A DNA stretch of 64,000 bases, from NCBI GenBank assembly GCA_050015275.1, contig JBEKBS010000012.1, positions 34,786 through 98,785 on the forward strand, given 5' to 3'. Position numbers and translations under genes: made by a program. The first letter of the stretch is position 1. Each line of letters starts with the position of its first letter. The notes under the pieces are model-generated. The model saw nothing but the letters and a program-made list of their open reading frames with translations, did no database searches and was not told where the DNA came from. The DNA is from Candidatus Aminicenantales bacterium (GTDB taxonomy: Bacteria > Acidobacteriota > Aminicenantia > Aminicenantales > Saccharicenantaceae). Below are positions 30,623 to 62,586 of the stretch, piece by piece.

Positions 30623-30635
30623 CAATGGAGCCCGC

Positions 30636-35404: not shown

Positions 35405-36744
35405 TCGAGAAGTACAGCGTCCTGGCCTCGGATTTCGAGAAGAACGCCCCTAAGGAGATGATGCTCCTGTCCATCATCTCCCAGAGCTTCTTCCAGCCGT
35501 TCTCCCTGGAAGACAACCTCCTCGTCATCATGACCGCCCTGACCTCCGGCTCGGGGGTCGGTTTCAACAGGGCCATGCTCTTCCTCCGGGACGGAGACAG
35601 CCTCCGGGGCGAGACCTGGCTGGGCCCGCGGACCTCCGAGGAGGCCGGCTACATTTGGGAGGTTCTCTCGACCCCGGGGATCGGCTACGTCGAGATCATC
35701 GAGCATAACCGGACCCTCGTCAGCAAGAACGAGGACACCCTCAGCCGCCGCATCAAGAATCTTGTTTTCACCATGGACGAGGAGACCTGCGCCTTGATCC
35801 CGGCCTGCGCGGCCTGCAACAAGGAGACCTACCTCGTCCGCGAGGCTTCGAAGGACCCGATGGTGGACAAGAAGTTCCTCGACCTCATCCAGGTCGACGA
35901 GTTCCTCTGCATCCCGCTCCTCGCCCGGGACGAGGTCTTCGGCGAGATCATCCTGGACAACGCCTTCACCCGCGTCCCCATCAGCCCGGGGGACATCAAG
36001 CTCGCTAGCCTCTGCGGCCTGATCGCCAGCAATTACATCTATTCGGCCACGCTCCACGAGCGGCTCCTCGACGCGGAAAAGATGGCCGCCATGGGCGAGA
36101 TGGCGATGTTCGTCACCCACCAGCTCAGGAACCCGCTGGTGACCATCGGCGGCTTCACCGACCAGCTCCTCCAGCCGGGCGTCTCCGACGACAAGAGGGA
36201 GCGGAACCTGAGGATCATCCGGGACGAGATCCAGCGCTTGGAGAATATCGTCTATCAGATGGGCCACTTCCTCAAGGTCAGCCTGAAAGAACCCGTCTAT
36301 TTCAGCGTCGGGCCGGCGATCGAATCCGTCCTCCGCAGCCCCGAGGTCCTGGCCAAAGGCCAGGGCTATGCCCTCAACGTCAAGATCGAGGAATGCCTGC
36401 CCCAGGTCCTCTGCGACCCGACCTCATTCGGGGAGGTCCTGCGAAACCTCCTGGACAACGCGTTCGACGCGACGCCCCCTGGAGGGACGGTTTCCCTGAG
36501 GGCCTACCGGAAGAACAAGGCATCGTTCGTCCTTTCGGTGAGGGACACGGGCCACGGCATCTCCAACCCCGACAAGGGCCAGCTCTTCAGGCCTTTCTTC
36601 ACCACCAAGGAGAAAGGGATGGGGCTGGGTCTGTCGTTCATCAAGAGGGTCATGGATACCTGCGGCGGAAAAATCGAGGTCCAGAGCCGGGCCGGGAAAG
36701 GGGCCCTGTTCAAGCTGATCTTTCAAAGCCGTGAAAGGGAGTAA
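35401..36744 (+). CDS. cytoplasmic sensor histidine kinase with GAF-like N-terminal region
   Basis: No TM segments. H-box FVTHQLRNPL, N-box LLDNAFDAT and G-boxes DTGHGI / GMGLGLS. It has an ATGA overlap with glgC. Confidence 0.8.
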   Translation: MIEKYSVLASDFEKNAPKEMMLLSIISQSFFQPFSLEDNLLVIMTALTSGSGVGFNRAMLFLRDGDSLRGETWLGPRTSEEAGYIWEVLSTPGIGYVEIIEHNRTLVSKNEDTLSRRIKNLVFTMDEETCALIPACAACNKETYLVREASKDPMVDKKFLDLIQVDEFLCIPLLARDEVFGEIILDNAFTRVPISPGDIKLASLCGLIASNYIYSATLHERLLDAEKMAAMGEMAMFVTHQLRNPLVTIGGFTDQLLQPGVSDDKRERNLRIIRDEIQRLENIVYQMGHFLKVSLKEPVYFSVGPAIESVLRSPEVLAKGQGYALNVKIEECLPQVLCDPTSFGEVLRNLLDNAFDATPPGGTVSLRAYRKNKASFVLSVRDTGHGISNPDKGQLFRPFFTTKEKGMGLGLSFIKRVMDTCGGKIEVQSRAGKGALFKLIFQSRERE

Positions 36745-36750
36745 TTCGCC

Positions 36751-37104
36751 ATGAAGAAGATCCTCGTCGTCGAAGATGAGAAGGCGCTCTGTCTCCTGTA
36801 CGGGGAGGAGCTCGGCAAAGCCGGCTACGCCGTCACGACGGCCTACGACGCCGACGCCGCCCTGAGGGAGCTCAAGAAAACGACCTTTGACCTCATCATC
36901 ACCGACATCCGGATGCCGGGGAAGAACGGGATCGAGCTCATCACCCAGATCATGGGGCTCCGCAAGGACATCCCCATCATCATCAACTCAGCCTACCAGA
37001 GCCACAAGGAGGATTTCATGACCTGGGCCGCCGACGCCTACGTCGTGAAATCGTCCTCGCTCGATGAACTCAAGCTCAAGATCAAGGAACTCATCGGTGA
37101 ATAA
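36751..37104 (+). CDS. single-domain response regulator (receiver only)
   Basis: 117 aa with KILVVEDE, the phospho-acceptor context DLIITDIRMPG and a conserved Lys (VVKS). There is no output domain. Confidence 0.85.
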   Translation: MKKILVVEDEKALCLLYGEELGKAGYAVTTAYDADAALRELKKTTFDLIITDIRMPGKNGIELITQIMGLRKDIPIIINSAYQSHKEDFMTWAADAYVVKSSSLDELKLKIKELIGE

Positions 37105-38129
37105 TGTCTGAACTCAGAAAAGACCTGATCAGCGGACGCTGGGTCATCATCGCCACGGAGCGGAGCAAGCGACCGGACGATTTCCGGCCGGCCGGCGGCA
37201 CGGCCCCGGTCGTGGAAGCCAGGGGGTTCTGCCCTTTTTGCGAGGGGAACGAGGGGAAGACGCCGCCCGAGGTCTTTGCCCTAAGACGAAGCGGGACCTT
37301 GCCTGACTCGCCGGGATGGCGGGTCCGGGTCGTCCCCAACAAGTTCCCCGCCCTCAACCGCGGGACAACGCCTCCCAAGCACACCAAGGGCGTATTCGAA
37401 TGGATGGAGGGCATCGGGGTCCACGAGGTCATCATCGAAAACCCCGACCACGACAAGGAGCTCGGCGACCTCCCTCCCGGGCATGTCCGGGACGTCCTCC
37501 AGGTCTTCCAGCAGAGGATCCGGTCCATCGAGGAGGACCTTCATTACCAGTACGTCCAACTGTTCAAGAACAAGGGAAAGGAGGCCGGCGCATCCCTCAG
37601 CCACCCGCATTCCCAGCTCGTGGCGACCCCCATCGTCCCGAAGCGGGTCAAGGAGGAGATCTACGGGGCCGAACGTCTGTTCCGAGGCCTCAAGGAATGC
37701 ACCTTCTGCCGGATCATCCGCGAGGAACAGGCCATGGGCGAGAGGCTCGTCTTTGAGAACCGGCACTTCGCCGTCATCGCGCCATTCGCCTCTCGTTTCC
37801 CTTTTGAAATGGCCATCTTCCCGCTCCGCCATTCGCCGTCCTTCACCTCCCCACGGGGGGAGGAGCTGGAGGCGATGGCCGAGACCATTAAGACCGTCCT
37901 GACCAAGTTGAAGACGACGCTCGGCGACCCACCCTACAACATGGTCCTTCACCAGGCGCCCAACCCGGCGCTCTCCCTCAAGAACTGGCCGGATATCGAC
38001 CACAACTACCACTGGCACATCGAGATCTTCCCGATCCTGACGAAGGTGGCGGGTTTCGAGTGGGGGACGGGTTACTACATCAATCCGGTCCCGCCGGAAA
38101 CGGCGGCGGGGTTCCTCAGAAAAGAATAG
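37104..38129 (+). CDS. galT: GalT-family (HIT superfamily) hexose-1-phosphate nucleotidyltransferase / NDP-sugar phosphorylase
   Basis: CPFCEGNE zinc knuckle and the HPHSQL active-site His-x-His. It has a TAATG overlap with the response regulator stop. Confidence 0.75.
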   Translation: MSELRKDLISGRWVIIATERSKRPDDFRPAGGTAPVVEARGFCPFCEGNEGKTPPEVFALRRSGTLPDSPGWRVRVVPNKFPALNRGTTPPKHTKGVFEWMEGIGVHEVIIENPDHDKELGDLPPGHVRDVLQVFQQRIRSIEEDLHYQYVQLFKNKGKEAGASLSHPHSQLVATPIVPKRVKEEIYGAERLFRGLKECTFCRIIREEQAMGERLVFENRHFAVIAPFASRFPFEMAIFPLRHSPSFTSPRGEELEAMAETIKTVLTKLKTTLGDPPYNMVLHQAPNPALSLKNWPDIDHNYHWHIEIFPILTKVAGFEWGTGYYINPVPPETAAGFLRKE

Positions 38130-38194
38130 GGACTGTCCTCGGAGGGGCTGTCCCTTTGAGCGGGCTCGCCAGCGAACCCGTGACGGCCCCACCC

Positions 38195-39643
38195 CTAAGA
38201 GAGTCCCTTGATCTTTCTGTAGAGCCCGAGATACTCTGCGGCCGATCTCGTCCACGAGAAATCGGAGGCCATGGCGTTCCGGATGAGGGCCCCCCAGAGG
38301 TCCGTCCGGGAATACGTGTCGAGCGCTCGGCGGAGAGAGAGCAAGAGCGCCTCGACCGACGCGGCCTCGAACTTGAATCCGTTCCCCTCGGCCGAGCCCG
38401 GCTCGAACTCCTGGATAGTGTCGTCGAGCCCGCCCGTGGCCCGGACGACCGGGACGGTCCCGTACTTGAGGGCGTACATCTGGGTCAGGCCGCACGGCTC
38501 ATAGCGTGAGGGGATCAGGAAGATGTCGCTCCCGGCATAGATCGTGTGGGCCGCCTTCTCGTCAAAGGCGATCATCAGGCCGAGGCGGCGGGGGTGTTTT
38601 TTCTTGGCATTCTTCAGGAAGTCCTGGATCTTCTGGTCGCCGGTCCCGAGGATGACGACCGTGACGCCCAGACGGAAGACCTCGTCGAGGGCGTCGCAGA
38701 CAATGTCGACGCCCTTCTGCCCGGCCAGGCGTGTGACCATCCCTGCGACCGGGGAACCGCCAGCGTTTCCTAGCCCAAACATCTCGAGCAAGCCCGCTTT
38801 CGAGCGGGCCTTTCCGGAAAGGTCGCCGGGGGAGAAGCGGGCCGGGATCAGCCGGTCCGTCGCGGGGTCCCAGTCGCTGTAATCGACGCCGTTCAGGATG
38901 CCTGAGAGGGCTTGGGAGCGCCATCGCAGGAGCCCGTCCAGGCCGCAGCCGAACTCCGGCGTCTGGATCTCGCGGCTGTAGCGGGGGCTCACGGTATTCA
39001 CGGCCGTCGCATAGAGGATGCCGGCTTTCATGTAGTTGACCTTGCCGAAGAACTCGAGGTCATTCATGTTGAAAAGCCGCCCGGGAAGGCCGACCGCCGC
39101 CAGGACCTTTTCCTCGAAAAGACCCTGGTAGGCAAGGTTGTGGACCGTGAAGAGGGACCGGGTGTCCTTGAAGAACGGGTCGTCGCCGTGGACGTACTTC
39201 AGGTACGCGAAGGCGGAGGCCGCCTGCCAATCATGGCCGTGGATGACGTCGGGGGAGACGCCCAGGGCTCTCATCGATTCGAGCGAGGCCCGGGCGAAAA
39301 AGGCGAAGCGCTCGCCGTTGTCGGGATAATCGCCCGCCGGGGTCCCGTAAAGGCAGTCCCGGTCGAAATATTCATCCCGGACGATGAAATACACGGAGAA
39401 CCCGTCCGCCCGATGCTCGAGGACGGAAAAGCCGGCCCTGGCCCCGGCCCAATCCAGGGAGAGATCTTCGACGACGTTCCGCAGAGGGAGGCCCTTTTTC
39501 CGCACTTCCCGGTAAAAAGGCATGAAAACCCGGACGTCTGCCCCGAGCCGGGCCAGGAACTTCGGCAGGGCGCCGGCCACGTCGGCCAAGCCGCCCGTCT
39601 TGGCGTAGGGGATGGCTTCTGAGGCAAGGAATGCTATTTTCAT
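38195..39643 (-). CDS. glgA: glycogen synthase (ADP-glucose type, GT5)
   Basis: MKIAFLASEAIPYAKTGGLADV N-terminus and a C-terminal GT-B region (PSRYEPCGLTQMYALKYG). Confidence 0.92.
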   Translation of the reverse strand: MKIAFLASEAIPYAKTGGLADVAGALPKFLARLGADVRVFMPFYREVRKKGLPLRNVVEDLSLDWAGARAGFSVLEHRADGFSVYFIVRDEYFDRDCLYGTPAGDYPDNGERFAFFARASLESMRALGVSPDVIHGHDWQAASAFAYLKYVHGDDPFFKDTRSLFTVHNLAYQGLFEEKVLAAVGLPGRLFNMNDLEFFGKVNYMKAGILYATAVNTVSPRYSREIQTPEFGCGLDGLLRWRSQALSGILNGVDYSDWDPATDRLIPARFSPGDLSGKARSKAGLLEMFGLGNAGGSPVAGMVTRLAGQKGVDIVCDALDEVFRLGVTVVILGTGDQKIQDFLKNAKKKHPRRLGLMIAFDEKAAHTIYAGSDIFLIPSRYEPCGLTQMYALKYGTVPVVRATGGLDDTIQEFEPGSAEGNGFKFEAASVEALLLSLRRALDTYSRTDLWGALIRNAMASDFSWTRSAAEYLGLYRKIKGLS

Positions 39644-46602: not shown

Positions 46603-48003
46603 ATGAAGATCACTTTCTTGGGAGCGGCGCGCCAAGTAACAGGGTCCTGCTACTTCCTTGAAGCCGGCGGCCTGAAGATCCTTATCGACTGCGGCCTCTA
46701 CCAGGAGCGGCCGTTCCTCGAAAGGAACTGGGACCCGCTCCCCGTGCCGCCGGAAGAGATCGACCTGCTGCTGCTGACCCACGCCCATCTGGACCATTCG
46801 GGTCTCATCCCGAAGATCGTCCGCGAGGGCTTTTCGGGGACGATCCTGACCACGGAGGCCACCGCCGATCTCTTGTCCATCGCCCTCATGGATTCGGCCC
46901 GTATCCAGGAGGAAGATGCGGCTTTCAAAGCGAAGCGCCACAAAAAGGAAGGGCGGCAGGGATCCCATCCCGAGGTCCCGCTCTACTCCGTCGAGGATGT
47001 CCAGCGGACCATGCCCCTCGTCGAGGAGATCCCCTACGAGACCGACATCCCCCTCTCCGAGGTCCTCACCGCCCGGTTCAGGGACGCGGGCCACATCCTC
47101 GGTTCGGCCATGATCGAATTGACCTGCCGGGAGGACGGCGGGTCGAAGAGGGTCGTTTTCTCGGGTGACATCGGCCAGTGGGGCAAGCCGTTCGTCCGCG
47201 ACCCGTCCGTCTTTGAGCGGGCCGACCACGTGGTGATGGAATCCACGTATGCGGACCGCGACCACGAGGACCCCAAGGCCGTGGACGAGATCCTCAGCGA
47301 GACGATCGTGGAGACGGCCAAGGCCGGCGGGAATATCGTCATCCCTACCTTCGCCATCGAACGGGCCCAGGAGCTCATGTTCTATCTCAGCCGTCTCGTT
47401 CGGGCCAAGGCCATCCCCGCTCTTCCCGTCTTCCTGGACAGCCCCATGGCCCGTGAGGTCACCGAGGCGTTTCGCCGTCATCAGGGCGACCTCGACGACG
47501 ACGTGCAGGCGCTTTTCAAGGCCGGGACGAGCCCCTTCGATTTCCCCGGCCTCGTGATCGTCCGGACTGTAGAGGAATCCAAAGCCATCAACTCTATCCG
47601 GGGGTCGGCCGTCATCATGGCGGGCTCGGGGATGTGCACCGGAGGCCGGATCAAGCACCATCTCCTCTGGAATATCGCCCGGCCCGAGTCGACCATCCTT
47701 ATCGTGGGTTACCAGGCCAAGGAAACGCTCGGCCGGCAGATCCTCGAAAGGCAGCCCCAGGTCCGGATCTTCGGCCAGACACTCCCGGTGCGGGCCAAGG
47801 TGGCCAAGATCAACGGCCTTTCCGCACACGCCGACCGGAAGGCCCTGGACCGTTGGCTCGATGCGTTCCAGGCTCCGCCTCGCCGTTTGTTCGTTGTCCA
47901 TGGCGATGCGGACGTGGCCCTACGCTTCGCCGAAAGGATCCACCAAGAGCGGGGCTGGACAGCGGAGGCCCCGGAATACCTCGGCTCCCGCGTCCTCGAT
48001 TAA
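46603..48003 (+). CDS. beta-CASP family metallo-beta-lactamase-fold nuclease (RNA-metabolising MBL)
   Basis: ATG 46603 (MKITFLGAARQVTGSCY), the HxHxDH motif THAHLDHSG, and the C-terminal GLSAHAD and VHGD motifs of beta-CASP proteins. Confidence 0.8.
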   Translation: MKITFLGAARQVTGSCYFLEAGGLKILIDCGLYQERPFLERNWDPLPVPPEEIDLLLLTHAHLDHSGLIPKIVREGFSGTILTTEATADLLSIALMDSARIQEEDAAFKAKRHKKEGRQGSHPEVPLYSVEDVQRTMPLVEEIPYETDIPLSEVLTARFRDAGHILGSAMIELTCREDGGSKRVVFSGDIGQWGKPFVRDPSVFERADHVVMESTYADRDHEDPKAVDEILSETIVETAKAGGNIVIPTFAIERAQELMFYLSRLVRAKAIPALPVFLDSPMAREVTEAFRRHQGDLDDDVQALFKAGTSPFDFPGLVIVRTVEESKAINSIRGSAVIMAGSGMCTGGRIKHHLLWNIARPESTILIVGYQAKETLGRQILERQPQVRIFGQTLPVRAKVAKINGLSAHADRKALDRWLDAFQAPPRRLFVVHGDADVALRFAERIHQERGWTAEAPEYLGSRVLD

Positions 48004-49469
48004 AAGCCGGTCTTCGGCAGAGCTCCAAGCCCCTGGGAGCGCGCGTAGCCGGTCATGATCTTTTCCAGATCTTTCCGTAAACCGTCAGGAAGCGGCGGAA
48101 GGGCATATTTGCCGATCCTGTCCTCAACGTCCTTGTGGGCCTTGTCGAGGGCGGTTCTGCGGCCGGCCATGACCCAGGCCTCGTACGGGTCCCGGTCCAT
48201 GATCACCGGCATCGTGTGCTCTTTTCTGTACCACTGGCGCGTATGGGGATGGGACAGGAACTGAAAATCGGCCTTGAAGCCCTCGAACTTGTCCAGGGCG
48301 ATCGGGTCCTCTCTCTGGGCGATGCCGGCGACCAGCCGGTATGCCATCCCGCAGATCTCGTTGTCGATGACGAGCTTTTCGAGGCTCTGCGAACTTTCGA
48401 AGTCCAGCATCCCCGGCCCCGAGATGACGTTGACGCCGGCGAGGGCCGCCAGAACGGCGCCCAGGGCCGTCTCGATGCCGCTCTGGGCGTCGTTGACCTT
48501 GGAGTCGCTGAGCGCCATGTAGGCATGCGTCGGGAGCTTCAGATGTTTCCCGATCTGGGCGTAGGCCGAGTCGATCATCATGGTCTCGATGGCCCCCATC
48601 GGCGTCGTCCCCTTCCTCATGTCAAAGCTCGAGGGCGAGCCGCCGAAGATGACCGGGGCGCCCCGGCGGGCCAGCTGGCAGATGACGAGGCCGCACAGGT
48701 TCTCGGCCACGTGCTGGACCAGGGTCCCTGAGATGGTGGCGAGGGATGTCGCGCCCGTCATGCCCATCGAGATGAGTTCCGAGGGGATGCCGGCCCGGGC
48801 CGAGTCGATCAGGCTCTGGGTCGTCAGGTGACTCCATTTGAGGGGAGGGGAGGGGCAGGCGTCGAAGATGGCCAGGGGTTTGCGCGAGAGCTCCGCCTCG
48901 CCGCCCCGGACGGCGACGAGGAAGTCCTTCATGGGCTTGAAGCTCTCGACCCGGAACGTCCCCGTGACGACGGGCTTGGACGAGAGGAGGAGTCCCAGGT
49001 ACAGCCGGTAACAGTCGGCGATCGCAGCCGGGACGTCCGAGGAGATCAGGCCCGTGCTCTGGAAATGGATGTGCTCGAGCGTCTCGACGAGCCGGCAGAA
49101 CGCGACGACGTCCCGCGTCGCGGCCTTTCGCTCTTCCTGGGTCTCGTGGTCGAGGAGGGAGACCGCCGCCGAGCCCGGGTCGAAGTGGATCTCGTCGCCT
49201 CCGACGAGGTAAGACTTTTCGCCGCTCCGGTCGTACATCGTGACGGACGGCGGGGTCGACGACAGGCAGTCCAGGACGAGTTTTCTGCCAAGCCGGGCCC
49301 TCTGCGTGGCCGTGTCGACACCGGCGCCGGCCGCGGCCAGGAGCCCCAGGGCCTCCTGGTTCTCGACAAAGACCCCCTGCTTCTCGAGGAGCACGAGGCC
49401 CTCATCGACGATTTTTTCGACCAATCCGGGGCTCAGAAGCTCGATCTTCGGTCTTTTGGTCTCGATCAT
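48000..49469 (-). CDS. MttB-superfamily (trimethylamine methyltransferase family) methyltransferase, non-pyrrolysine type
   Basis: ATG 49469 follows GGGAGG. 489 aa uninterrupted, with no in-frame TAG. LVEKIVDEGLVLLEKQGV...EALGLL and the TIM-barrel-length body resemble MttB/MtgB proteins. Confidence 0.75.
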   Translation of the reverse strand: MIETKRPKIELLSPGLVEKIVDEGLVLLEKQGVFVENQEALGLLAAAGAGVDTATQRARLGRKLVLDCLSSTPPSVTMYDRSGEKSYLVGGDEIHFDPGSAAVSLLDHETQEERKAATRDVVAFCRLVETLEHIHFQSTGLISSDVPAAIADCYRLYLGLLLSSKPVVTGTFRVESFKPMKDFLVAVRGGEAELSRKPLAIFDACPSPPLKWSHLTTQSLIDSARAGIPSELISMGMTGATSLATISGTLVQHVAENLCGLVICQLARRGAPVIFGGSPSSFDMRKGTTPMGAIETMMIDSAYAQIGKHLKLPTHAYMALSDSKVNDAQSGIETALGAVLAALAGVNVISGPGMLDFESSQSLEKLVIDNEICGMAYRLVAGIAQREDPIALDKFEGFKADFQFLSHPHTRQWYRKEHTMPVIMDRDPYEAWVMAGRRTALDKAHKDVEDRIGKYALPPLPDGLRKDLEKIMTGYARSQGLGALPKTGF

Positions 49470-49482
49470 GGTCCGCCTCCCG

Positions 49483-50136
49483 TCATCTCTTCGGGGCCAG
49501 GCTCTTGGCCAGCTTGACGGCGGCCACTGCGTTCTCGGCATAGCCATCGGCACCCGCCTCGTCGGCCCACTTCTGGCTGGCCGGCGCCCCTCCCACGAGG
49601 ACCTTGTATCTATTCCTGAGGTTCCTCTCCTTGAGGAGCCCGACCAACCGTTTCTGGTTGACCATCGTCGTCGTCAGCAGGGCGGACAGGCAGATGAAAT
49701 CCGCGCCGACGGCCTCGGCCTTTTCGATGAACCTCTCGAGCTTGACGTCGGCGCCGAGGTCGAAGACCTCGAAGCCGCCGGCCTGGAGCATGGAGGACAC
49801 GAGGTTCTTGCCGATGTCGTGGATGTCTCCCTCGATCGTGCCGATGACCACCTTTCCGCCCGTCCTGGCCTGGAGACGGGAGCGCTGGAGCTCGGGCTCG
49901 AGGACGGCCATGGCCGCCTTCATGGCCTCGGCGCTGGAGATGAGCTCGGGCAGGAAATATTCTCCCTGCTCCCACAGTTCTCCGACCCTCTGGATACCCG
50001 GAACATAGCCTTTTTCAATGACTTCGAGAAGGTCCAGGCCCGCCTTGACGGCCTCCCCGGCCAGCCGTCCGGCCCCCGCGCCGTCGCCCTCGACGATCGC
50101 CTCCCGCATCTGCAGGTAGTGCTCTTCCTTGTTCAT
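49483..50136 (-). CDS. cobalamin-binding corrinoid protein (B12-binding_2 cap + Rossmann B12 domain)
   Basis: 217 aa with the DxHxxG lower-ligand motif (GDIHDIGKNLV) and SALLTT / GGAP motifs of B12-binding domains. Confidence 0.85.
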   Translation of the reverse strand: MNKEEHYLQMREAIVEGDGAGAGRLAGEAVKAGLDLLEVIEKGYVPGIQRVGELWEQGEYFLPELISSAEAMKAAMAVLEPELQRSRLQARTGGKVVIGTIEGDIHDIGKNLVSSMLQAGGFEVFDLGADVKLERFIEKAEAVGADFICLSALLTTTMVNQKRLVGLLKERNLRNRYKVLVGGAPASQKWADEAGADGYAENAVAAVKLAKSLAPKR

Positions 50137-51029
50137 GCCGTCCTCCTTGAGATCGATTCCGCCATGGCCTTGATGAAGGCCGGGTCCGTCCCGCAGCAGC
50201 CGCCGACGATATTGGCCCCGGCCCGGATGAGCTCCGGAACGAACCGGACATAGTCTTCGAGCCCTTGGGAATAGCCCACCCGGCCGTCGCTCCCGACAAC
50301 GGGCTGGCCCGCGTTGGCCTGGGCGATCAACGGCAGGATCGTCTCCTGCCGCATGGCCTTGACGAGGCCCGTCATCTGCTCGCTATTGAGAGTGCAGTTG
50401 GCTCCCACGGCCCTGGCGCCTTCCTTTTCGAGCTCCTTCAGGCACCGGGCGACAGTGTCGCCCATGCTGGTAAAGTACCCCCGGGGATTCGCGGAGAAGG
50501 TCATCGTGACGAAAACAGGCAGGCTGGAGGCCGCCCGCCGGGCTCCTCGGAGGGCGGAGAGGGCCTCGCGGAGGTCATACTGGGTTTCGATGAGCAGAAC
50601 ATCCACCGCGCCGTCGGCAAGGGCCCCTGCCTGTTCGGCGAAGACGGACTCGAACTCCTCCTCCGTGAACTCGCCCAGGGGCTTGAGGAGCTTGCCGGTC
50701 GGCCCGATGCTCCCGGCCACGAACTTCCCGGGGGGCGCAACCTCCCGGGCGAGCCGGGCTGCGGTGCCATTCAGCTCGGCCGTCCGGCCCTCAAGCCCGT
50801 GGTGGGCAAGTTTGATCCGGCTCGCGCCGAAGCTGTTCGTGGAAACCATATCGGATCCGGCCAGGAAATAGTTCCGATGAATCTCCTGGACAACGTCGGG
50901 CCTCTCGATGTTCCACTCTTCGGGAAATTTCCCCTGGGGCAATCCGCGGGCCATGAGCTCCGTGCCCATGGCCCCGTCCAAGAGAACGGTCCTTTGACGG
51001 ATCAGGTCCATTATCGAACGGCTCATCAT
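50133..51029 (-). CDS. homocysteine S-methyltransferase-domain protein (MetH Hcy-binding module homologue)
   Basis: LLDGAMGTEL, TNSFGAS, and the zinc-ligand cysteines VGANC and GGCCGT. It has ATGA overlaps at both ends. Confidence 0.75.
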   Translation of the reverse strand: MMSRSIMDLIRQRTVLLDGAMGTELMARGLPQGKFPEEWNIERPDVVQEIHRNYFLAGSDMVSTNSFGASRIKLAHHGLEGRTAELNGTAARLAREVAPPGKFVAGSIGPTGKLLKPLGEFTEEEFESVFAEQAGALADGAVDVLLIETQYDLREALSALRGARRAASSLPVFVTMTFSANPRGYFTSMGDTVARCLKELEKEGARAVGANCTLNSEQMTGLVKAMRQETILPLIAQANAGQPVVGSDGRVGYSQGLEDYVRFVPELIRAGANIVGGCCGTDPAFIKAMAESISRRTA

Positions 51030-52804
51030 CCACCTCCGGGGAAAGGGCCGAATTCCAGGCACCGGACAAACTCGTCCTGGAAATCCGGCCTCGCGGCCAG
51101 CGAAACATGGGTCACGCTTTTCGCCAGGGACCCGGCGGCCGCCCTCGCGGGAGCCGAAAGGAGGAGCTTGCGCGCCCCGGCCAGCGACGAGTTCCCAACG
51201 AACGTGATCTTTTTATCCGGGATCCCCGGCAGAAGGCCCAGGGCCTGGGCGTTGCGGATGTCGAGCGAGCTGCCGAAGGCACCGGCGACGTAAACGCTGT
51301 CCAACTCCTTCAGCCCCACCTGGAACTCCCGAAGCAACAGCCGGATCCCCGTCTTGATGGCGGCGGCGGCCAGCTGGATCTCCCGGATGTCGTTCTGGGT
51401 CAGGCTGAGCTTATCGCCCAGCCGGAGTTTTTTCTCCGGCCCGGCGATCTTGCCATCGCGGCCGATGAGGCCGCGGGCCAGGCCGTGGGCCAGGACGTCG
51501 ATGAGCCCCGTGCCGCAGAGGCCGTGGGGCGTCCCGCCGCCGATCGTCTGGAGCCGGAAGCCGTCCCGCCATTCGGCCCGGTGGACCGCGCCCTCGACTG
51601 CCAGCATGCCGCAGCTGATGCTCATCCCTTCGAAGGCCGGCCCCGCCGCCGTGGAAGTGGCGACGAACTGCGGGCCTTTCTTGAGGACGATCTCGCCGTT
51701 GGTCCCGATATCGATGAAGAGCGCGGTGCCCGGCTTATCGGCCAGGGCGCAGGCGGCCAGCCCGGCCGTGATGTCCCCGCCGACGAAGCTCTTGATATTG
51801 GGGACGATGAAGACCCTGGCCGCCGGATTGAGCTCGAGGCCGATCTCCGCGGCGGGGAAGGGCGGCACGAACGTGAAGACCGCCTGGAAGGGGGAGAGGG
51901 CCAGCGGGTCCACGCTCACTCCGCAAAGCAAGTGGTTCATCGCCGTATTGCCGGAGATGACGGCCTCGTAGACGCGATCGGTCGGGACGCCGCTTTTTTC
52001 CGACAATTCGCGGGCGAGCGTGTTCAGGAGATGGGTGATGGACTTTCTCAGGCGCTTGAGATTGTCCGGCGATTGGAAGGCGAAGCTGATCCTCGAAACG
52101 ACGTCAGCGCCGTAGGAGGCCTGGCTGTTGAGGGCCGAGGCCCGGCCGGCGCTTTTTCCGGTGATGAGGTCGACGAGCTCGACGACGACGGTGCTCGTGC
52201 CGATGTCCACGGCCAGCCCGAACGTCTGCGCAGACGTGTCGCCGGGCTCGATATCAAGGGCCTCCAGTTCGCCGTAGAGGACGGCCGTGACCGTCCGAGG
52301 CGAGCCCTGGTCCAACTCCTTGAGGCCCCTCAGGGCCGGAAGAGGGAAGCCCAAACCGGGCGCCCCGAGAAGTGACTCCAGGCTTTCCGTCACGGCCGCA
52401 GGGGCTGAGAGCGGGGGCCTTTCGAGGGTCACGGCGAGTTTCCTGACTTGGGGGTCAAGGGCGACAGGCAGAGAAAGGCCGGTCTCGAGGACGGCCACTT
52501 TGCCCAAGCGCGATTCCGGGAGGATTTCCACGACCATGTCGCCCCGAACGGCGAACCGGCAGGCCAGCCGGTGGTCGGGGCCGAGGCCCCTTTTATCGAG
52601 GACGGCCCTTTCGGGGGCCTCGAGGAGGGGCAGGAGCCCCGCCCGGATCCGGACGGCGCACTTCCCGCAGACCCCGCGCTTGTGGCAATAGAGGCTGACC
52701 GGAATGCCGGCCGTCGCCAGGGCGTCGGCCAGGAGCTCCCCGGCCCGGACCCGGATCTTGGTCCCGTCAGGGAGGATCTCGAGGGTATTAGTCACGTCGG
52801 TCAT
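51026..52804 (-). CDS. corrinoid reductive activase (RACo / DUF4445, [2Fe-2S] ferredoxin + ASKHA ATPase)
   Basis: N-terminal ferredoxin Cys pattern CHKRGVCGKCAV...LACRF and a long ASKHA-like body (DIGTSTV, DIGTNGE). Confidence 0.75.
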   Translation of the reverse strand: MTDVTNTLEILPDGTKIRVRAGELLADALATAGIPVSLYCHKRGVCGKCAVRIRAGLLPLLEAPERAVLDKRGLGPDHRLACRFAVRGDMVVEILPESRLGKVAVLETGLSLPVALDPQVRKLAVTLERPPLSAPAAVTESLESLLGAPGLGFPLPALRGLKELDQGSPRTVTAVLYGELEALDIEPGDTSAQTFGLAVDIGTSTVVVELVDLITGKSAGRASALNSQASYGADVVSRISFAFQSPDNLKRLRKSITHLLNTLARELSEKSGVPTDRVYEAVISGNTAMNHLLCGVSVDPLALSPFQAVFTFVPPFPAAEIGLELNPAARVFIVPNIKSFVGGDITAGLAACALADKPGTALFIDIGTNGEIVLKKGPQFVATSTAAGPAFEGMSISCGMLAVEGAVHRAEWRDGFRLQTIGGGTPHGLCGTGLIDVLAHGLARGLIGRDGKIAGPEKKLRLGDKLSLTQNDIREIQLAAAAIKTGIRLLLREFQVGLKELDSVYVAGAFGSSLDIRNAQALGLLPGIPDKKITFVGNSSLAGARKLLLSAPARAAAGSLAKSVTHVSLAARPDFQDEFVRCLEFGPFPGGG

Positions 52805-52857
52805 CTTCTTCAGCCGGCCACAAGAAGCTTCATTTTAAACCAAATCCCCGGCCATGC

Positions 52858-54270
52858 CTATCCTTTTTTGCGGTCCCCGCCGCCCGCGGGAGGACGCCTT
52901 CTCCAGATCAGGAAGGCCGGCAGGCCGGCCCCGAGCAGGGCCAGGCCCGCCGCGGACTTCAGGGGCTGGGCAGAGAGGATGTTGACGAAGATCGCCAGGC
53001 ATATTACTACAAATACCATAGGAATAATAGGATATCCCCACGCCCGGTAGGGACGGCTCGCTTCGGGGCGCCGCCGGCGGAGGACGATGACGGCCAGGCC
53101 CGTCGCCGCGAAGAAAACGAGCAGGGCGAAAACCATGTATTCGTACAGCGATTGGTATCCCCCAGACAGGCAGAGCACGGCGGACCAGGCGGCCTGGCCC
53201 CAGAGGGCGCGCGTCGGGACTCTGGTGCGCGGGCTGAGCCGGGCCATGGACCGGAAAAAGCTCCCGTCCCTGGCCATGGCGTAATAGACCCGCGGCCCGA
53301 AAAGCAGGTTGGCGTTCAGGCAGCCGAAGACCGAGATCATGATCACGGCCGCAATCGCCGTTCCCGCGCCGCCGCCGAAGAGAGCCGTCGTGACGAGCTC
53401 CCCGACCCGCACGACCCCCTTCATCTTCTCCAGCGGAAGGGCCAGAAGGTAGACAAGGTTGATCGAGACATATAAAACGATGACCCCGACGACGCCGAGG
53501 GCCAGCCCCCGAGGGATGTTTTTCTCCGGGTCCCGGATCTCTTCGGCCGTGCAGTTGACGGAATACCAGCCGTCATACGTCCAAAAAACCGCGACCAGAG
53601 CCAGGCCGAGCGGTTTCAGGACGCCCGGAAACCTCAGCCCTGCGGGGAAAAGAGGGTGGAAGTTCGTCCCGCCCGCCTTGGTCCCGAAAACGAGCCCCAG
53701 GACGACGAGCGCCCCGACCGCCCCGATCCGGAAGACGGTCAAGAGGTTCTGGACGACGACGCCGGCCCGGATCCCGAGCGAGTTGATGGCGGTCAAGACG
53801 ACGATGGAGGCGGCGGCGACCACCTGCCCGGCCGACAGGGAATATGAAAGCCCAAAGGCCGAAAACTGGGCGACTTTGACCCCCATGGAGAGTGAGGGAA
53901 CGAAGGAGCCGAAGAATTCGGCGAACCCCACGGCCAGCGCGGCTAGCCCGCCGCACATGATGAACCCGAAAAAGCCCCAGCCGAAGAGGAAGGCTGCGCC
54001 CGGGCCGTAAGCCTCCCGGAGGTAGACATATTGACCCCCGGCCTTCGGGTACATCGCTCCGAGCTCGGCGAACGAGAGCGCCCCGCAGAGCGTGACGAGG
54101 CCTCCGGCCAGCCAAACGACGAGGAGGAGGCCGGGGGAGGGGAGGCCGGCCGCGATCAAGCCCGGCGTCATGAAGATCCCCGACCCGATGACGGCACCGA
54201 CGACGAGGAAGGCCGTGTCCATGAGGTTCAGCCGCCTGAGGAATTTTGGTTCGATTGTTTCCGGGCTCAT
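52858..54270 (-). CDS. APC superfamily amino acid/polyamine/organocation permease
   Basis: 470 aa with about 12 TM helices. The N-terminal motif is VVGAVIGSGIFMTPG. Confidence 0.8.
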   Translation of the reverse strand: MSPETIEPKFLRRLNLMDTAFLVVGAVIGSGIFMTPGLIAAGLPSPGLLLVVWLAGGLVTLCGALSFAELGAMYPKAGGQYVYLREAYGPGAAFLFGWGFFGFIMCGGLAALAVGFAEFFGSFVPSLSMGVKVAQFSAFGLSYSLSAGQVVAAASIVVLTAINSLGIRAGVVVQNLLTVFRIGAVGALVVLGLVFGTKAGGTNFHPLFPAGLRFPGVLKPLGLALVAVFWTYDGWYSVNCTAEEIRDPEKNIPRGLALGVVGVIVLYVSINLVYLLALPLEKMKGVVRVGELVTTALFGGGAGTAIAAVIMISVFGCLNANLLFGPRVYYAMARDGSFFRSMARLSPRTRVPTRALWGQAAWSAVLCLSGGYQSLYEYMVFALLVFFAATGLAVIVLRRRRPEASRPYRAWGYPIIPMVFVVICLAIFVNILSAQPLKSAAGLALLGAGLPAFLIWRRRPPAGGGDRKKG

Positions 54271-55026
54271 GGTCTCGGCCAGGCCCCATTGTACGGGATT
54301 TAGAGGATCAAGCGTGAGGAATATTTTTGTAATGCCGAAAGATACCGAGAGAGACAGTTACCCGAGCGCGATCAAAGGGATCGACCCATCCCCCCCCCCA
54401 GCCAAAGTTTCTCGCGGAATGATACGATGGAAAATCAACGTAAAATCCTATTGGCCCTTTATCATACTGATCACAAATCCACTTATATCATTTAATATCA
54501 ATGATTTATAATATTTTTTGCGGCTTGCCCTTATTCAAAACGCTGTTTGCTGCACCCTGCCTTTTTCACGCATTCTTATTTTGCCGTCTCTCCGGATTGC
54601 CCCTTTTCTATCTCGAACCCAACTGTTTAACCTGCCGTCTAACCGCAGATTTCCTGATCAAGAGCACCAAGCTTCCATGATAGAGGATTGCGGTTATTCT
54701 TGGATCGGGCTTTGGCCTATTTATTTTCGAACTGGGGCTTTCAATTCGGCCTTTTTTTCGTTCGCTTCCAATTGATACATAAAACGCTTCCACTCGTCCT
54801 CCGCCGGACGCCCCTCAGCGATTTTCGCAAATCATTTTCTGCAAACCCGCGTACCTACTTAGCTTTTCTTTTTTTTCAATTCACTCGTGTCGACGAAATC
54901 TCTTTATTGTCGTTCCTAATCCCACAAGTTTTTCCCCACGACCCCAATCCCGTCTCTACGATACTGCTAAACTCCTTATGACCGGATTCCGGACACACAT
55001 TTATTCATTTGTATTCAAATAGTTAC

Positions 55027-55053
55027 AATAAATGTCGGCGTGCCGACATTATT
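55027..55053. promoter_or_regulatory. palindromic operator/centromere-like site upstream of parA
   Basis: AATGTCGGC-GT-GCCGACATT is a perfect 9-bp inverted repeat (55031-55050). It extends to AATAAATGTCGGC / GCCGACATTATT with one bulged A. Confidence 0.4.
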
Positions 55054-55076
55054 CTATTCCCGCGACGATAATTCGC

Positions 55077-55105
55077 TTGCATTCCGGCCCCTCTTTCGTT
55101 ATAAA
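55077..55105 (+). promoter_or_regulatory. candidate sigma70-type promoter of parAB (TTGCAT-N17-TATAAA)
   Basis: TTGCAT at 55077-55082, a 17-nt spacer, then TATAAA at 55100-55105. It lies about 40 nt upstream of the parA GTG, and a GGAGGGAG SD starts at 55131. Confidence 0.45.
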
Positions 55106-55145
55106 TGTACTCTCGAATCAATCCGTCCTGGAGGGAGAGAGGCCG

Positions 55146-55910
55146 GTGATCATTGCTATCACGAACCAGAAAGGCGGAGTAGGGAAAACTACGACATCGA
55201 TCAATATCTCTTCTGCTTTGGCTTTGATGGGAAAGAAGGTCCTCCTCATTGATATGGACCCTCAGGCTCACAGCACGATTTCGACCGTGGCCGATCCGTC
55301 GAACTATGAAAAATCGCTCTATGATGTCCTGATGAATAAGCATGAGAAGATGGACAACATCATCGTCCGTTCGACAGTGCCGGGCCTGGACCTGGCTATC
55401 GCAAAGATTTCCATGGCCAAGCTGGAACCATCGCTTCTCGGGGAGATCGACGGTCATTTCCGGCTGAAGGATGCCCTCGAATCCACCAAACACAAATACC
55501 AGTTCATCTTAATCGACACGCCGCCGACACTGGGCTTGATCACCATGAACGCGCTCGTTGCGGCCTCGGCCATCCTGATCCCCATCCAATCCTCATATCT
55601 GGCCCTCGAAGGAACGGATGACCTTTTGGAAACGATCGAGAAGGTCCGCCGGATCGCCAACCCCGGCCTTAAGATCATCGGGGTCCTGGTCACGCTTCAC
55701 GACAGGAGAACTAACCTCGGGAGGGACGTGGTGGAGAGGATCCGCCGCGTCTTCGGAAAGAAGGTCTTCAAGACCTTTATCTCGAAGAGTGTCAAGCTCG
55801 AAGAAAGCCCGGCCTATAAGGAATCGATCTTTACATATGCTCCCGAATCCGTCGGGGCGGAACAATACCGAAAAGTCGCCGAGGAGATATTGGAACGTGC
55901 AAAAAGCTAA
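55146..55910 (+). CDS. parA: ParA/Soj family chromosome-partitioning ATPase
   Basis: GTG 55146 follows GGAGGGAGAGAGG. It has the deviant Walker A ITNQKGGVGKTT, LLIDMDPQ and Walker B FILIDTPP. Confidence 0.85.
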   Translation: MIIAITNQKGGVGKTTTSINISSALALMGKKVLLIDMDPQAHSTISTVADPSNYEKSLYDVLMNKHEKMDNIIVRSTVPGLDLAIAKISMAKLEPSLLGEIDGHFRLKDALESTKHKYQFILIDTPPTLGLITMNALVAASAILIPIQSSYLALEGTDDLLETIEKVRRIANPGLKIIGVLVTLHDRRTNLGRDVVERIRRVFGKKVFKTFISKSVKLEESPAYKESIFTYAPESVGAEQYRKVAEEILERAKS

Positions 55911-56736
55911 GCGGTCCGGTCTTCCTGAAACCGTTACGATGAGGCATGATGGCCACTTTGTCGACCTGCTCTCGTCCAGGTCCATGGGGCCCCGCATTCG
56001 GATGATCGCGCTCGAGCATATCGACCCGAACCCCCATCAAGCCCGGACCGAGCTCGGCAATATCCAGGAGCTTATGGACTCCATTCGGAGCAAAGGCATC
56101 CTCGAGCCTATCCTTGTCCGGTCCAAAGGTAGCAGGTTCGAGATCATCGCCGGGGAGCGCAGGTTCATGGCTGCCAGGAACATCGACCTCAAGGAGATCC
56201 CGTGCATCGAGATGGACGTCGAAGAAAACGAAGCCATGGAGATCGCCCTCATCGAGAACCTCCAGCGGAAGGACCTCGACCTTTTCGAGGAAGCCGACGG
56301 GCTCCAGTCCCTGATCGACCTTTATGGGTATCACCATCAGCAGGTCTCCGAGAAGATCGGAAAAGCCCGCTCGACGATCACCGAAATCCTGTCGATCACG
56401 AGGATCCCCGCGTCCGTCCGCGAGATCATCAAGTCCTCGGGAGCCTTCAGCCGGGGCACGATCATCGAGGTCGCCAAACAGAAAACCGACGAAGACATGC
56501 AAAAGCTCGTCAAAGAGATCGTCGATCGCCATCTGACCAGAGAAGATACCCGCGATCTTTCCAAGCACCTCAAAGGCAAGACGAAGAAACTCAAATATTA
56601 TGTCTATAATTTTGTCCCCGATGACACGGACAATTTCAGATTGAGGCTCGAGTTCAAAAAGCAATCGATCTCAAAGACCGATATCATCGAGGTCCTCGAG
56701 GACATCATCCGCAGGCTGAAAGCCAAAGCAGGATAA
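55897..56736 (+). CDS. parB: ParB/Spo0J family partition protein
   Basis: Motifs IDPNPHQAR, ILEPILVR and IIAGERRFMAA (ParB box), plus an HTH (SEKIGKARSTITEILSI). The start is uncertain: GTG 55897 follows GAGGAG and overlaps the parA end, and an ATG lies about 14 codons downstream. Confidence 0.8.
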   Translation: MQKAKRSGLPETVTMRHDGHFVDLLSSRSMGPRIRMIALEHIDPNPHQARTELGNIQELMDSIRSKGILEPILVRSKGSRFEIIAGERRFMAARNIDLKEIPCIEMDVEENEAMEIALIENLQRKDLDLFEEADGLQSLIDLYGYHHQQVSEKIGKARSTITEILSITRIPASVREIIKSSGAFSRGTIIEVAKQKTDEDMQKLVKEIVDRHLTREDTRDLSKHLKGKTKKLKYYVYNFVPDDTDNFRLRLEFKKQSISKTDIIEVLEDIIRRLKAKAG

Positions 56737-57149
56737 GCGCCTCGGAGGGGATCTTTCTCTTATACGATCCGTTAAAGAAAGCGCCCGGGACACGCTTCAT
56801 ATGGGGAAAAGCGATGGGTTCGTGCGCTCTTATGGTGCCCCTGGGCAATTCCGGATATTAGTTGACATAATAATTCTTATGCGACTCATTTTGCGGGGCC
56901 CCATTAATTATTTCCTCTACAGCCATTTATAATTCTCCACACCCTGTGGATATCCCTGCTGAACAATCCTTGTGCATTTGTGGAAATACCCGCCAGCTTT
57001 TTCTTGATCAGCGCTAGCCCACCTCTTGATCACGGCGCTATAAGGATATTTTTTATCTGGCCCACCACGTATCTCGACTGTTCCTCATCTGACCCTGCCC
57101 TGAAACCATTCCTGGCTTATCGTTGCCCCCCAAAATCGATTTTTTGGCC

Positions 57150-57190
57150 AAAAAAAAGGCCGGCCACGGTCGTCTCCGCCGCGCCGGCCC
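57150..57190 (-). terminator. intrinsic terminator downstream of rho
   Basis: On the minus strand the stem GGCCGGC (57189-57183) pairs with GCCGGCC (57164-57158). It is followed by T8 (the complement of A57150-57157) and lies 20 nt after the rho stop. Confidence 0.55.
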
Positions 57191-57209
57191 GTTCCCGGTC
57201 TCTTGGGAC

Positions 57210-58490
57210 CTAAAGGGCCTTGCTCATGGCCGCCATGAAGTCCTGGTTCGTCTTGGTCTTGCTCAGCTTATCGATCAGCAGCTCCACGGCCTCGACCTCG
57301 TTCATCTGGCTGAGGACCTTTCTCAAGACCCAGATCCTGTTCAAGTCGGCCTCCTCGATCAGGAGCTCCTCTTTCCGGGTCCCGGACCGGCTGATATCGA
57401 TCGCCGGGAAGACCCTCTTGTCGACAAGCCTCCGATCAAGGTTGATCTCCATGTTACCCGTGCCTTTGAATTCTTCGAAGATGACCTCGTCCATCCGGCT
57501 CCCGGTGTCCACCAGGGCCGTCGCCAGGATGGTCAGGCTGCCGCCTTCCTCGACCTTGCGGGCCGAGCCGAAGAATTTCTTCGGCTTGTGAAGGGCGTTG
57601 GCGTCGATCCCGCCCGACAGGACCTTCCCCGAGGGCGGGACGATCGCGTTGTGGGCCCGGGCCAGCCGGGTGATCGAGTCGAGCAGGATCACGACGTCCC
57701 GCTTGATCTCGACGAGCCTCTTCGCCTTCTCGAGGACGATGTTCGCGACCTGGGCGTTCCGGGTCGGCGGCTCGTCGAACGTCGACGCGACGACCTCCCC
57801 GTTGACGCTCCTCTTGAAGTCCGTCACTTCTTCCGGCCGTTCGGCCACTAGGAGCACGATCAAGAAGATCTCGGGGTGGTTTTTTTCGATGGACTTGGCG
57901 ATCGTCTTAAGGATGGTCGTTTTTCCGGCCCTCGGGGGCGAGACGATGAGCCCCCGCTGTCCCTTGCCGATGGGCGTCAGGAGTTCCATGACCCGGGCGT
58001 TCATGTTCTTCGGGTTCCCGTCCTGGAGCTTGATCATTTCGAAGGGATAGAGCGGCGTCAGGCTTTCGAAGACGACGTTCCGCCTCTCCTCGATGATGAC
58101 GTCAGGGTGCATGAAATTGACGGCCTCGATCTTGATCAGGGCGAAGTATTTTTCCCCGTTTTTCGGGGCCCTGACATGGCCCGAGATCGTGTCCCCGGTC
58201 CGGAGCTGGAATTTTCGGATCTGGGACGGCGAAACATAGATGTCGTCCTGGCTTGGCAGGTAGCTGAACTCTGGGGCCCTCAGGAACCCGAAGCCGTCCT
58301 CGAGGCACTCGAGGACCCCTTCCGAGAACAACAGGCCCTGCTTCTTGGCCTGGGCCTCCAGGATCCTGAAGATCAGATGGTGCTTGCTGGTTTCTTCGGT
58401 TTCCGGCTCCTCGATCCCCACGGCGACGGCGAGCTTCTTCAGGGCGGAAACGTCTTTTTCCTCCAGCTCGACCAAATTGTACTCTTTCAT
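57210..58490 (-). CDS. rho: transcription termination factor Rho
   Basis: The track start at 58502 is GTG. ATG 58490 ([13 protein letters not shown]) follows GTGAGG. It has the RNA-binding GFGFLR, Walker [16 protein letters not shown], and the C-terminal motif [17 protein letters not shown]. Confidence 0.95.
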
Positions 58491-62501: not shown

Positions 62502-62586
62502 TAGGCAGGGCGGGAATCGAACCCGCACTCCTTCATCAGGAACTAGGTCCTAAGCCTAGCGCGTCTGCCAATTCCGCCACCTGCCC
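62502..62586 (-). tRNA. tRNA-Leu (anticodon TAG), type II with long variable arm, no encoded CCA
   Basis: Hand-folded from the minus strand: acceptor GGGCAGG/CCTGCCT (G1-U72 wobble), D-arm GCG-GAATTGGCAGA-CGC, anticodon stem-loop CTAGG-CTTAGGA-CCTAG, a long variable arm and T-arm GCGGG-TTCGATT-CCCGC. Confidence 0.85.

Follow-up and report, generated by a model that had tools for sequence, protein, structure and literature searches.

The operon and its proteins

We analysed a window of 64,000 nucleotides from a Candidatus Aminicenantales bacterium (contig JBEKBS010000012.1, GC about 63%) and found that its minus strand carries an operon that begins with a permease gene, followed by genes for a RACo-type activase, a homocysteine (Hcy) S-methyltransferase domain protein, a corrinoid protein and a homolog of the methyltransferase MttB. 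An earlier note on this DNA had proposed that the operon may carry methyl groups from a methylated amine to homocysteine. Its genes are listed here in the order in which they are read, with positions in the window.

52858-54270, minus strand: LAT/SLC7-type permease of the APC superfamily, 470 amino acids (aa), first gene of the unit; AA_permease_2, 211 bits
51026-52804, minus strand: RACo-type ATP-dependent reductive activase; Fer2, RACo_linker, Raco_middle and RACo_C_ter
50133-51029, minus strand: stand-alone Hcy S-methyltransferase domain protein, 298 aa, proposed methyltransferase II (MT-II); S-methyl_trans, 238 bits
49483-50136, minus strand: MttC-like corrinoid (B12) protein with cap and Rossmann parts; B12-binding_2 (PF02607) and B12-binding (PF02310)
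48000-49469, minus strand: non-pyrrolysine MttB-superfamily methyltransferase, 489 aa, proposed methyltransferase I (MT-I); MTTB (PF06253), 287 bits

The open reading frame (ORF) list holds all five co-directional genes at these coordinates, and their junctions display translational coupling. The RACo and Hcy genes overlap in an ATGA at 51026-51029, and the Hcy and corrinoid genes in another at 50133-50136; both overlaps have a GGAGG-like ribosome-binding site upstream. The corrinoid and MttB genes are separated by 13 nucleotides (nt; 49470-49482) with a GGAGG inside, ahead of the MttB start, and a 53-nt gap lies between the permease stop and the RACo start. The translations contain the motifs CHKRGVCGKC (RACo), VGANC and GGCCGT (Hcy protein) and DIHDIGKN (corrinoid protein). 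Thus the gene order, overlaps, gaps and motifs that had been described before were all read in the sequence, and the Pfam domains expected by the earlier note (MTTB, B12-binding with B12-binding_2, S-methyl_trans, and Fer2 with RACo) were all found.

The activase has an N-terminal [2Fe-2S] ferredoxin domain and an ASKHA body, with all four RACo Pfam domains. It matches RACo of Carboxydothermus hydrogenoformans (3zyy) over its full length (2.8e-104) and scores under the cut-off of the AcsV model (383 vs 800). The corrinoid protein, which carries the DxHxxG motif as DIHDIG, passes the TIGR02370 cut-off (234.7 vs 215.3) and stays under that of the MtgC-specific models (239 vs 310). Its best solved relative is MttC (7xcn, 199 bits), whereas the B12 domain of MetH gave only 115 bits.

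The Hcy protein scored 238 bits against the S-methyl_trans model (PF02574, cut-off 22). Its best solved relative is the Hcy domain of Thermotoga maritima MetH (2e-50), with the GANC and GGCCGT motifs aligned. The zinc triad that had been proposed for this protein held on alignment: C212, C278 and C279 align with the zinc ligands of T. maritima MetH and are invariant in 22 relatives, as is a conserved glutamate, E148. Among curated models the best match was the YitJ type, the Hcy half of a bifunctional Hcy-methyltransferase/methylenetetrahydrofolate reductase (MTHFR).

The earlier note saw the operon as a methionine synthase MetH split into separate proteins. The resemblance in layout to a modular B12-dependent methionine synthase stands: the operon shares with MetH the proposed half-reaction from methyl-cobalamin to zinc-activated homocysteine, the Hcy TIM barrel with its Cys/Cys-Cys triad, the cap and Rossmann parts of the B12 module, and the DxHxxG motif. 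Unlike MetH, it is made of four polypeptides and lacks the pterin (methyl-tetrahydrofolate, methyl-THF) module and the S-adenosylmethionine (AdoMet) activation domain; Pfam found neither PF00809 nor PF02965 in any of the five genes, and the operon proteins matched the metH equivalog models only piecewise. As ancestry, however, a disassembled MetH is wrong, because the corrinoid protein is MttC-like and the Hcy protein fits best to the YitJ-type model. By these matches, the operon is a mosaic, in which a methylamine-type pair of MT-I and corrinoid protein is joined to an Hcy-type MT-II, and not a MetH that fell apart.

The MttB homolog scored 286.7 bits against PF06253 (cut-off 25), with residues 2-471 covering positions 24-491 of the 500 in the profile. 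It remained below the cut-off of TIGR02369, the trimethylamine equivalog (373 vs 525), and was nearly equidistant from Methanosarcina barkeri MttB (195 bits) and Desulfitobacterium hafniense MtgB (189 bits). These two proteins, reconstructed from printed alignments, formed our comparison set of characterised family members. The ORF is uninterrupted and has no in-frame UAG, and pyrrolysine 334 of M. barkeri MttB (7xcl) aligns with Leu320, which bears out the earlier assignment to the non-pyrrolysine members. Leu320 is present in 37 of 39 Aminicenantes orthologs, and the position is L or M across all 39. The column of MttB Tyr364 is occupied by Ser350. Trimethylamine demethylation by way of pyrrolysine was therefore rejected.

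MtgB contacts glycine betaine through Y97, R312, H348 and F356, as determined by mutagenesis and a ligand-bound structure, and R312 is kept in the enzymes for carnitine, proline betaine, phosphocholine and butyrobetaine (Picking et al. 2026, PMC13080624). In the window protein these four positions are S100, H315, S350 and E358. The first three are invariant in the 39 orthologs and E358 occurs in 38 of them. The pocket signature of the clade, GS[H/Q]xS[D/E/N][F/Y]E as opposed to GYRLHQYF in MtgB, persists down to about 35% identity. We searched 1.84 billion representatives exhaustively, and over 150 clusters at 50% identity scored above the characterised MttB and MtgB. Judged by signature and scores, the homolog belongs to a large uncharacterised clade apart from both.

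Since all four MtgB contacts are replaced, we rejected glycine betaine as donor through an MtgB-type site, and no characterised family member predicts the donor. This runs counter to the earlier note, which had pointed to the known quaternary amines as donors; the arginine kept in the carnitine, proline-betaine and butyrobetaine enzymes is among the lost residues. With two conserved acidic residues, and with His or Gln where MtgB has its carboxylate-binding Arg, the pocket may accept a substrate of different charge.

Eight of the Aminicenantes loci described below (L019, L029, L034, L039, L050, L054, L056, L073) have an additional MttB paralog near the cluster, which is highly divergent (25-29% identity) and has other pocket residues; in L029 it comes after an aminotransferase and another APC permease. 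Such paralogs suggest that several donors may feed one corrinoid protein.

The best solved relative of the permease is BasC (6f2g, 1.4e-56). By homology it is an amino-acid exchanger of the LAT/SLC7 type, not a BCCT or ABC betaine carrier, and it is a candidate importer or exchanger for the methyl donor.

Distribution of the gene cluster and its activases

To place the operon among its relatives, we scanned species-representative genomes with an alignment of Hcy relatives, which gave 189 matching stretches. Almost all of the best 80 of the 189 come from metagenome-assembled genomes of Candidatus Aminicenantes, and the closest relative among them is MFD03726.bin.3.73 (94% identity). Loci with enough flanking sequence were counted as informative. 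The Hcy, corrinoid and MttB genes were directly adjacent in 34 of 64 informative species genomes, so that the gene order drawn from one sequence proved to be conserved. RACo lay directly upstream of the Hcy gene in 44/70 informative loci, and the permease-RACo arrangement stood upstream in 25/64. Among informative loci, wherever the Hcy protein was at least 62% identical to that of the window, the corrinoid gene adjoined the Hcy gene and was followed by MttB as far as the flank reached, with L017 as the sole exception. The same overlaps, or gaps of 2-10 nt, appeared in the gene calls of three relatives.

More distant Aminicenantes have an AcsC-like subunit of the corrinoid iron-sulfur protein and an AcsV-like RACo upstream of the three genes, and in some of these loci genes for an aminotransferase, a further APC permease and an additional MttB paralog come after them. 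Four loci of low-GC Aminicenantes (L017, L042, L051, L060) hold a two-gene unit of APC permease and Hcy gene without RACo, corrinoid or MttB genes. These pairs recall mmuP-mmuM of E. coli.

The two-gene units bring up a corrinoid-independent reading, in which the Hcy protein would act like MmuM or betaine-homocysteine S-methyltransferase (BHMT). Its methyl donor would be a sulfonium or ammonium compound, such as S-methylmethionine, brought in by the permease and used directly, and MttB, corrinoid protein and RACo would form a separate demethylase with another acceptor. The proposed net reaction from an onium methyl to homocysteine and the permease gene beside an Hcy methyltransferase gene are indeed shared with these systems, and the Hcy protein scored 218 bits on PRK07534, a model of bacterial BHMT. 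However, this is below its cut-off of 338, and the window proteins also missed the curated cut-offs for MmuM (PRK09485, 127 vs 215) and, by far, for MmuP (NF008484, 45 vs 716). PRK07534-type proteins are themselves argued to be corrinoid-dependent modules (Mausz et al. 2025). BHMT and MmuM bind the donor directly, without corrinoid protein or activase, whereas here the start and stop codons of the Hcy gene overlap those of the RACo and corrinoid genes. The nearest solved relative is the MetH Hcy domain rather than MmuM or BHMT, and no alternative MT-II of the pterin, MtrH or URO-D type was found in any cluster. We regard the corrinoid-independent reading as very improbable.

With a profile of distant signature-bearing MttB proteins we retrieved clade members from other phyla, with matches named from Bacteroidota, Fidelibacterota, Riflebacteria, Planctomycetota, WOR-3, Deltaproteobacteria and Phycisphaerae. 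All five loci looked up, from five other phyla, contained MttB, a PF02965 protein, a corrinoid protein and S-methyl_trans in one cluster, and none of the five held a Pterin_bind gene or RACo. Their MttB proteins are 46-50% identical to that of the window and carry the signature GSQLSDFE; their Hcy proteins retain the zinc triad. Here the gene order is MttB, activation protein (Act), corrinoid protein (CoP), Hcy. The earlier proposal that MttB takes the place of the methyl-THF module agrees with the lack of a pterin module in all five.

An APC permease follows immediately downstream in two of these clusters (Bacteroidota, Fidelibacterota), so that APC permeases occur beside the cluster in three phyla. 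Since these two are only 26-27% identical to the permease of the window, they appear to have been recruited independently. One of the five, L100, has a PLP-dependent enzyme of Cys/Met metabolism directly upstream. The module recurs in dozens of species genomes of Aminicenantes, and five other phyla have it with the genes in another order; the arrangement is far beyond chance.

A hidden Markov model (HMM) of the five activation proteins matched ORFs of about 200 aa beside MttB in four loci of Aminicenantes (E 1e-14 to 1e-18; positions are those of each locus); RACo is present as well in two of the four.

L004/L005, 12030-12632: PF02965-type homolog, no recorded Pfam hit
L018, about 11058-11645: PF02965-type homolog
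L045, 5428-6030: PF02965-type homolog, no Pfam hit in a direct scan
L054, about 13261-13857: PF02965-type homolog

These ORFs appear to be divergent AdoMet-type activases, which in some lineages would coexist with RACo. The same HMM found no such protein among six-frame ORFs of at least 80 aa in the window, nor in close relatives; a PF02965 protein hidden in the window was rejected on this result, given the positive matches in the four other loci. From this comparison, RACo stands in place of the PF02965 activase in the lineage of the window, in line with the earlier suggestion that it replaces AdoMet-dependent reactivation. Two activases are thus interchangeable around the module, with some lineages holding both, which argues that MttB, corrinoid protein and Hcy protein work together as a unit that depends on the regeneration of Co(I).

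We then considered where a methyl-THF branch could enter. Among the called genes of the window we found no pterin-binding, MTHFR, MetE or PF02965 domain, and tblastn with an Aminicenantes Pterin_bind protein found no homolog in the window, so a hidden pterin module was rejected. Stand-alone Pterin_bind proteins of Aminicenantes have 263-269 aa and are MeTr/AcsE-like. In relatives, a slot between an Aminotran_5 gene and DUF4416 and tRNA-synt_2 genes can hold them: L055 and L086 carry an Hcy gene and/or a stand-alone Pterin_bind gene there, and one Aminicenantes chromosome has Pterin_bind. In the window this slot is a 106-nt spacer (15359-15464). Elsewhere (L087, L090, L093-L096) a Pterin_bind gene (about 268 aa) is consistently paired with an S-methyl_trans+MTHFR fusion of 608-630 aa. 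By its content, this pair resembles the folate side of a split methionine synthase, one with no corrinoid protein of its own. The presence of Pterin_bind in related genomes indicates that the lineage of the window has, or had, a methyl-THF branch.

These findings bear on a second alternative, modelled on MtgBCDE as described by Mausz et al. 2025. RACo, Hcy protein and corrinoid protein would be a housekeeping synthase fed by methyl-THF through a pterin methyltransferase, with MttB as an accessory whose methyl groups may mainly run through the corrinoid protein and a reversed pterin subunit into the THF pool, as catabolism. Several observations favour it, and some of them weigh against a dedicated route from MttB to homocysteine. 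Two genomes with the Hcy-corrinoid-MttB cluster also encode Pterin_bind beside the S-methyl_trans+MTHFR fusion: the DATKXS01 assembly (cluster L050, pair L087) and the CAZGJS01 assembly (cluster L011, pair L090), of which L011 has the whole extended synteny of the window. The operon's corrinoid protein and RACo might therefore also serve a methyl-THF branch. Other distant Aminicenantes have Pterin_bind directly after the Hcy gene (six loci), or the Hcy gene alone. In a neighbour-joining tree, the Hcy proteins grouped by lineage and not by gene context; there seems to be one Hcy ortholog per genome with varying partners, so the protein may be a general MT-II and not a dedicated partner of MttB. 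The window also encodes the THF-dependent enzymes FTCD and an AICARFT/IMPCHase protein. Finally, genetics in Ruegeria shows that one corrinoid protein is needed to demethylate glycine betaine as well as to make methionine (Mausz et al. 2025).

However, the cluster is conserved without a pterin module across six phyla, and the ancestral Pterin_bind slot of the window is empty. Moreover, the genomes with Pterin_bind place it beside another Hcy domain, a fused one that shares just 38% identity with the Hcy protein of the operon, which suggests two parallel systems, and a much smaller number of relatives was retrieved for the Pterin_bind family than for the Hcy family (543 vs more than 5000). On balance we consider the methyl-THF-fed synthase unlikely, though it is the most serious competitor of a THF-independent one.

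Upstream region, flanks and other features of the window

Two promoter-like elements were found on the minus strand.

54288-54320, minus strand: conserved promoter-like block with the -10 element TACAAT at 54288-54293
52832-52860, minus strand: sigma-70-like promoter match in the permease-RACo spacer from a consensus scan (9/12 matches), a weak, possible internal promoter

The TACAAT ends 17 nt ahead of the permease ATG. Across six aligned relatives, the parA-permease spacer has only two conserved blocks, namely this promoter-like block and a palindrome beside parA. The block stands so near to the start codon that there is no space for a long leader. Rfam at gathering thresholds found no riboswitch in the whole window and gave one tRNA only, and a permissive scan of 52700-55200 gave only one sub-threshold small RNA match. 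A riboswitch or leader RNA upstream of the operon was rejected on these grounds.

The spacer itself (54271-55031, 761 nt) is AT-rich: its GC is 44%, that of the locus 62%. The 29 relatives examined all share this AT-richness, but the sequence itself is poorly conserved. A replication origin was considered here and rejected: DnaA boxes with up to one mismatch are not enriched in the window, and the spacer has none. The palindrome, TGTCGGC-NN-GCCGACA at about 55040-55060 beside the parA start, is kept in 6/6 aligned relatives and could be a parAB operator or a parS-like site. The parA/parB region (54000-58000) has a GC of 52-56%, markedly under the 60-66% of the remaining window, and in low-GC relatives the parAB genes are also lower in third-position GC than their neighbours.

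Housekeeping genes flank the operon: parA/parB, rho, lon and trigger factor on one side, and on the other a beta-CASP RNase gene, an ORF without annotation that resembles a membrane protein, and an M1 peptidase gene. The MttB gene and the plus-strand RNase gene converge, with stops overlapping by 3-4 nt at 48000-48003, as in L001, so there is no room for a terminator between them. The earlier note had brought metK and ahcY into the argument. Both are indeed in the window (4911-6137 and about 6058-7458); they lie 41 kb from the operon with unrelated genes in between, so a functional link was rejected and they are uninformative about the operon.

A glycogen/alpha-glucan cluster at 30384-39643, in which genes for a histidine kinase and a response regulator are interleaved, encodes two GH57 enzymes, a galactose-1-phosphate uridylyltransferase-like protein and a starch/glycogen synthase. 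The tRNA gene, the sole Rfam match, is long (85 nt; 62502-62586, minus strand). At 12184-14676 (minus strand), a single ORF of 830 aa joins a class-II aminoacyl-tRNA-synthetase-like part to a MiaB/RimO-type radical-SAM methylthiotransferase (UPF0004, Radical_SAM, TRAM). The synthetase part has the anticodon OB fold and tRNA-synt_2, ends at profile position 262 of 308 and lacks the C-terminal domain part. In L055 the counterparts are two separate adjacent genes with a complete synthetase. The ORF could be a real fusion, a pseudogene made by deletion, or an assembly error.

Proposed route to methionine

Taken together, the data suggest that the operon probably encodes a four-protein, corrinoid-dependent and THF-independent methionine synthase with its substrate permease. 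We infer the catalytic steps, the direction of flux, the nature of the donor (not glycine betaine by the MtgB criteria) and the permease substrate from sequence. The LAT-type permease would import a methylated, probably amino-acid-like, nitrogen compound; LAT-family carriers are exchangers, so it may swap the donor for the demethylated product. The MttB-clade enzyme would then move one methyl group from the donor to Co(I) of the MttC-like corrinoid protein. From the resulting methyl-Co(III), the zinc-dependent Hcy protein would transfer it to homocysteine, yielding methionine and Co(I). Cofactor that becomes oxidised to Co(II) would be re-reduced by RACo with ATP and its [2Fe-2S] cluster.

The same chemistry may serve a catabolic role. 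Homocysteine is used as a recyclable methyl sink by BHMT in SAR11 and animals; here, likewise, the demethylated product would be the carbon or nitrogen source and methionine supply would be secondary. The Aminicenantes loci are rich in peptidase and amino-acid metabolism genes, with peptidases as common neighbours; in L029 the cluster is followed by an aminotransferase, a further APC permease and the second MttB paralog; and related genomes have another methionine route. However, to recycle methionine the cell would need an acceptor that takes up methyl groups downstream of AdoMet in stoichiometric amounts. The cluster has no such acceptor associated with it, metK and ahcY show no linkage to it, and the neighbour in L100 is a PLP enzyme of the Cys/Met-biosynthesis type. 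A mainly catabolic role seems rather improbable to us.

The earlier note knew of no system with this wiring from donor to homocysteine. The idea is sound, but the wiring is not new. A cluster that encodes a non-pyrrolysine MtgB/MttB homolog along with an Hcy S-methyltransferase, a corrinoid protein and an activation protein was reported from Ca. Electryoneota and "diverse bacteria" by Williams et al. 2022 (Environ Microbiol, PMC9324843), who proposed a novel corrinoid-dependent methionine synthesis with an unspecified methyl donor. We found no later characterisation of this MttB clade in the literature searched. Their cluster and the window operon share the proposed function, an MttB homolog of a separate clade (here by signature and scores), a stand-alone Hcy protein and a corrinoid protein, and both encode all four functions, including activation, together. 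They differ in activase and order, PF02965 and MttB-Act-CoP-Hcy in the former, RACo-Hcy-CoP-MttB headed by a LAT-type permease in the latter.

Further precedents come from Alphaproteobacteria. Genetic evidence from Phaeobacter inhibens showed a methionine synthase in three parts, with a RamA-like activase required for its function (Price et al. 2018). In Ruegeria pomeroyi neither methionine synthesis nor the use of glycine betaine proceeds without MtgC and MtgD, and MtgE is the Hcy module (Mausz et al. 2025). Like the operon, these systems have a separate Hcy subunit (MtgE), a corrinoid protein (MtgC), a RamA/RACo-like activase and an MttB-family protein, MtgB, that loads the same corrinoid protein. 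However, they require the pterin-binding MtgD for both functions, and no such protein is present in the window or in any cluster examined, while two related genomes with the cluster encode a pterin-binding protein elsewhere. In addition, mtgE usually lies apart from mtgBCD, whereas the Hcy gene here is translationally coupled to the corrinoid gene. Their MtgB is specific for glycine betaine, which the pocket of the window protein does not resemble, DUF1638 is involved, and the hosts are aerobic.

The operon also shares an MttB-superfamily MT-I, a TIGR02370 corrinoid protein and an ATP-dependent activase with the quaternary-amine and methylamine systems that work with RamA, namely MtgBCA of D. 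hafniense, MttBC/MtbA of Methanosarcina, and MtpB, MtcB and MtyB of Eubacterium limosum. Unlike the operon, for which homocysteine is the proposed acceptor, the MT-II of these systems gives the methyl group to THF or coenzyme M, and the MtgB contacts as well as the pyrrolysine and Tyr364 of MttB are all replaced in the window protein. Against this background, three things appear to be undescribed: the Aminicenantes version with RACo and a leading permease gene, the exchange of activases, and the pocket signature that sets the clade apart from MtgB.

More broadly, and more tentatively, the signature-bearing MttB proteins may form with their corrinoid and Hcy partners a class of folate-independent methionine synthases. 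This class would span at least six phyla, use an environmental methylated-nitrogen donor that is not a substrate of the characterised MttB-superfamily enzymes, and have shifted its reactivation from AdoMet to RACo. We hold this to be possible, somewhat below the confidence we place in the operon's own function.

If true, many anaerobic sediment and soil bacteria would make methionine, and hence AdoMet, from pre-formed N-methyl groups without methyl-THF. Osmolyte and methylamine turnover, B12 demand and sulfur amino-acid supply would then be tied together in anoxic habitats. A function would also be assigned to a large uncharacterised branch of the MttB superfamily; metagenome studies, among them studies of mercury methylation and methylamine cycling, often label such genes as trimethylamine or glycine-betaine methyltransferases. 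The swap of unrelated reactivation systems, two in number, around one three-protein core is a clean natural experiment on how corrinoid enzymes are kept active. The operon is a well-defined, widespread and biochemically testable candidate for a folate-independent, B12-dependent methionine synthase.

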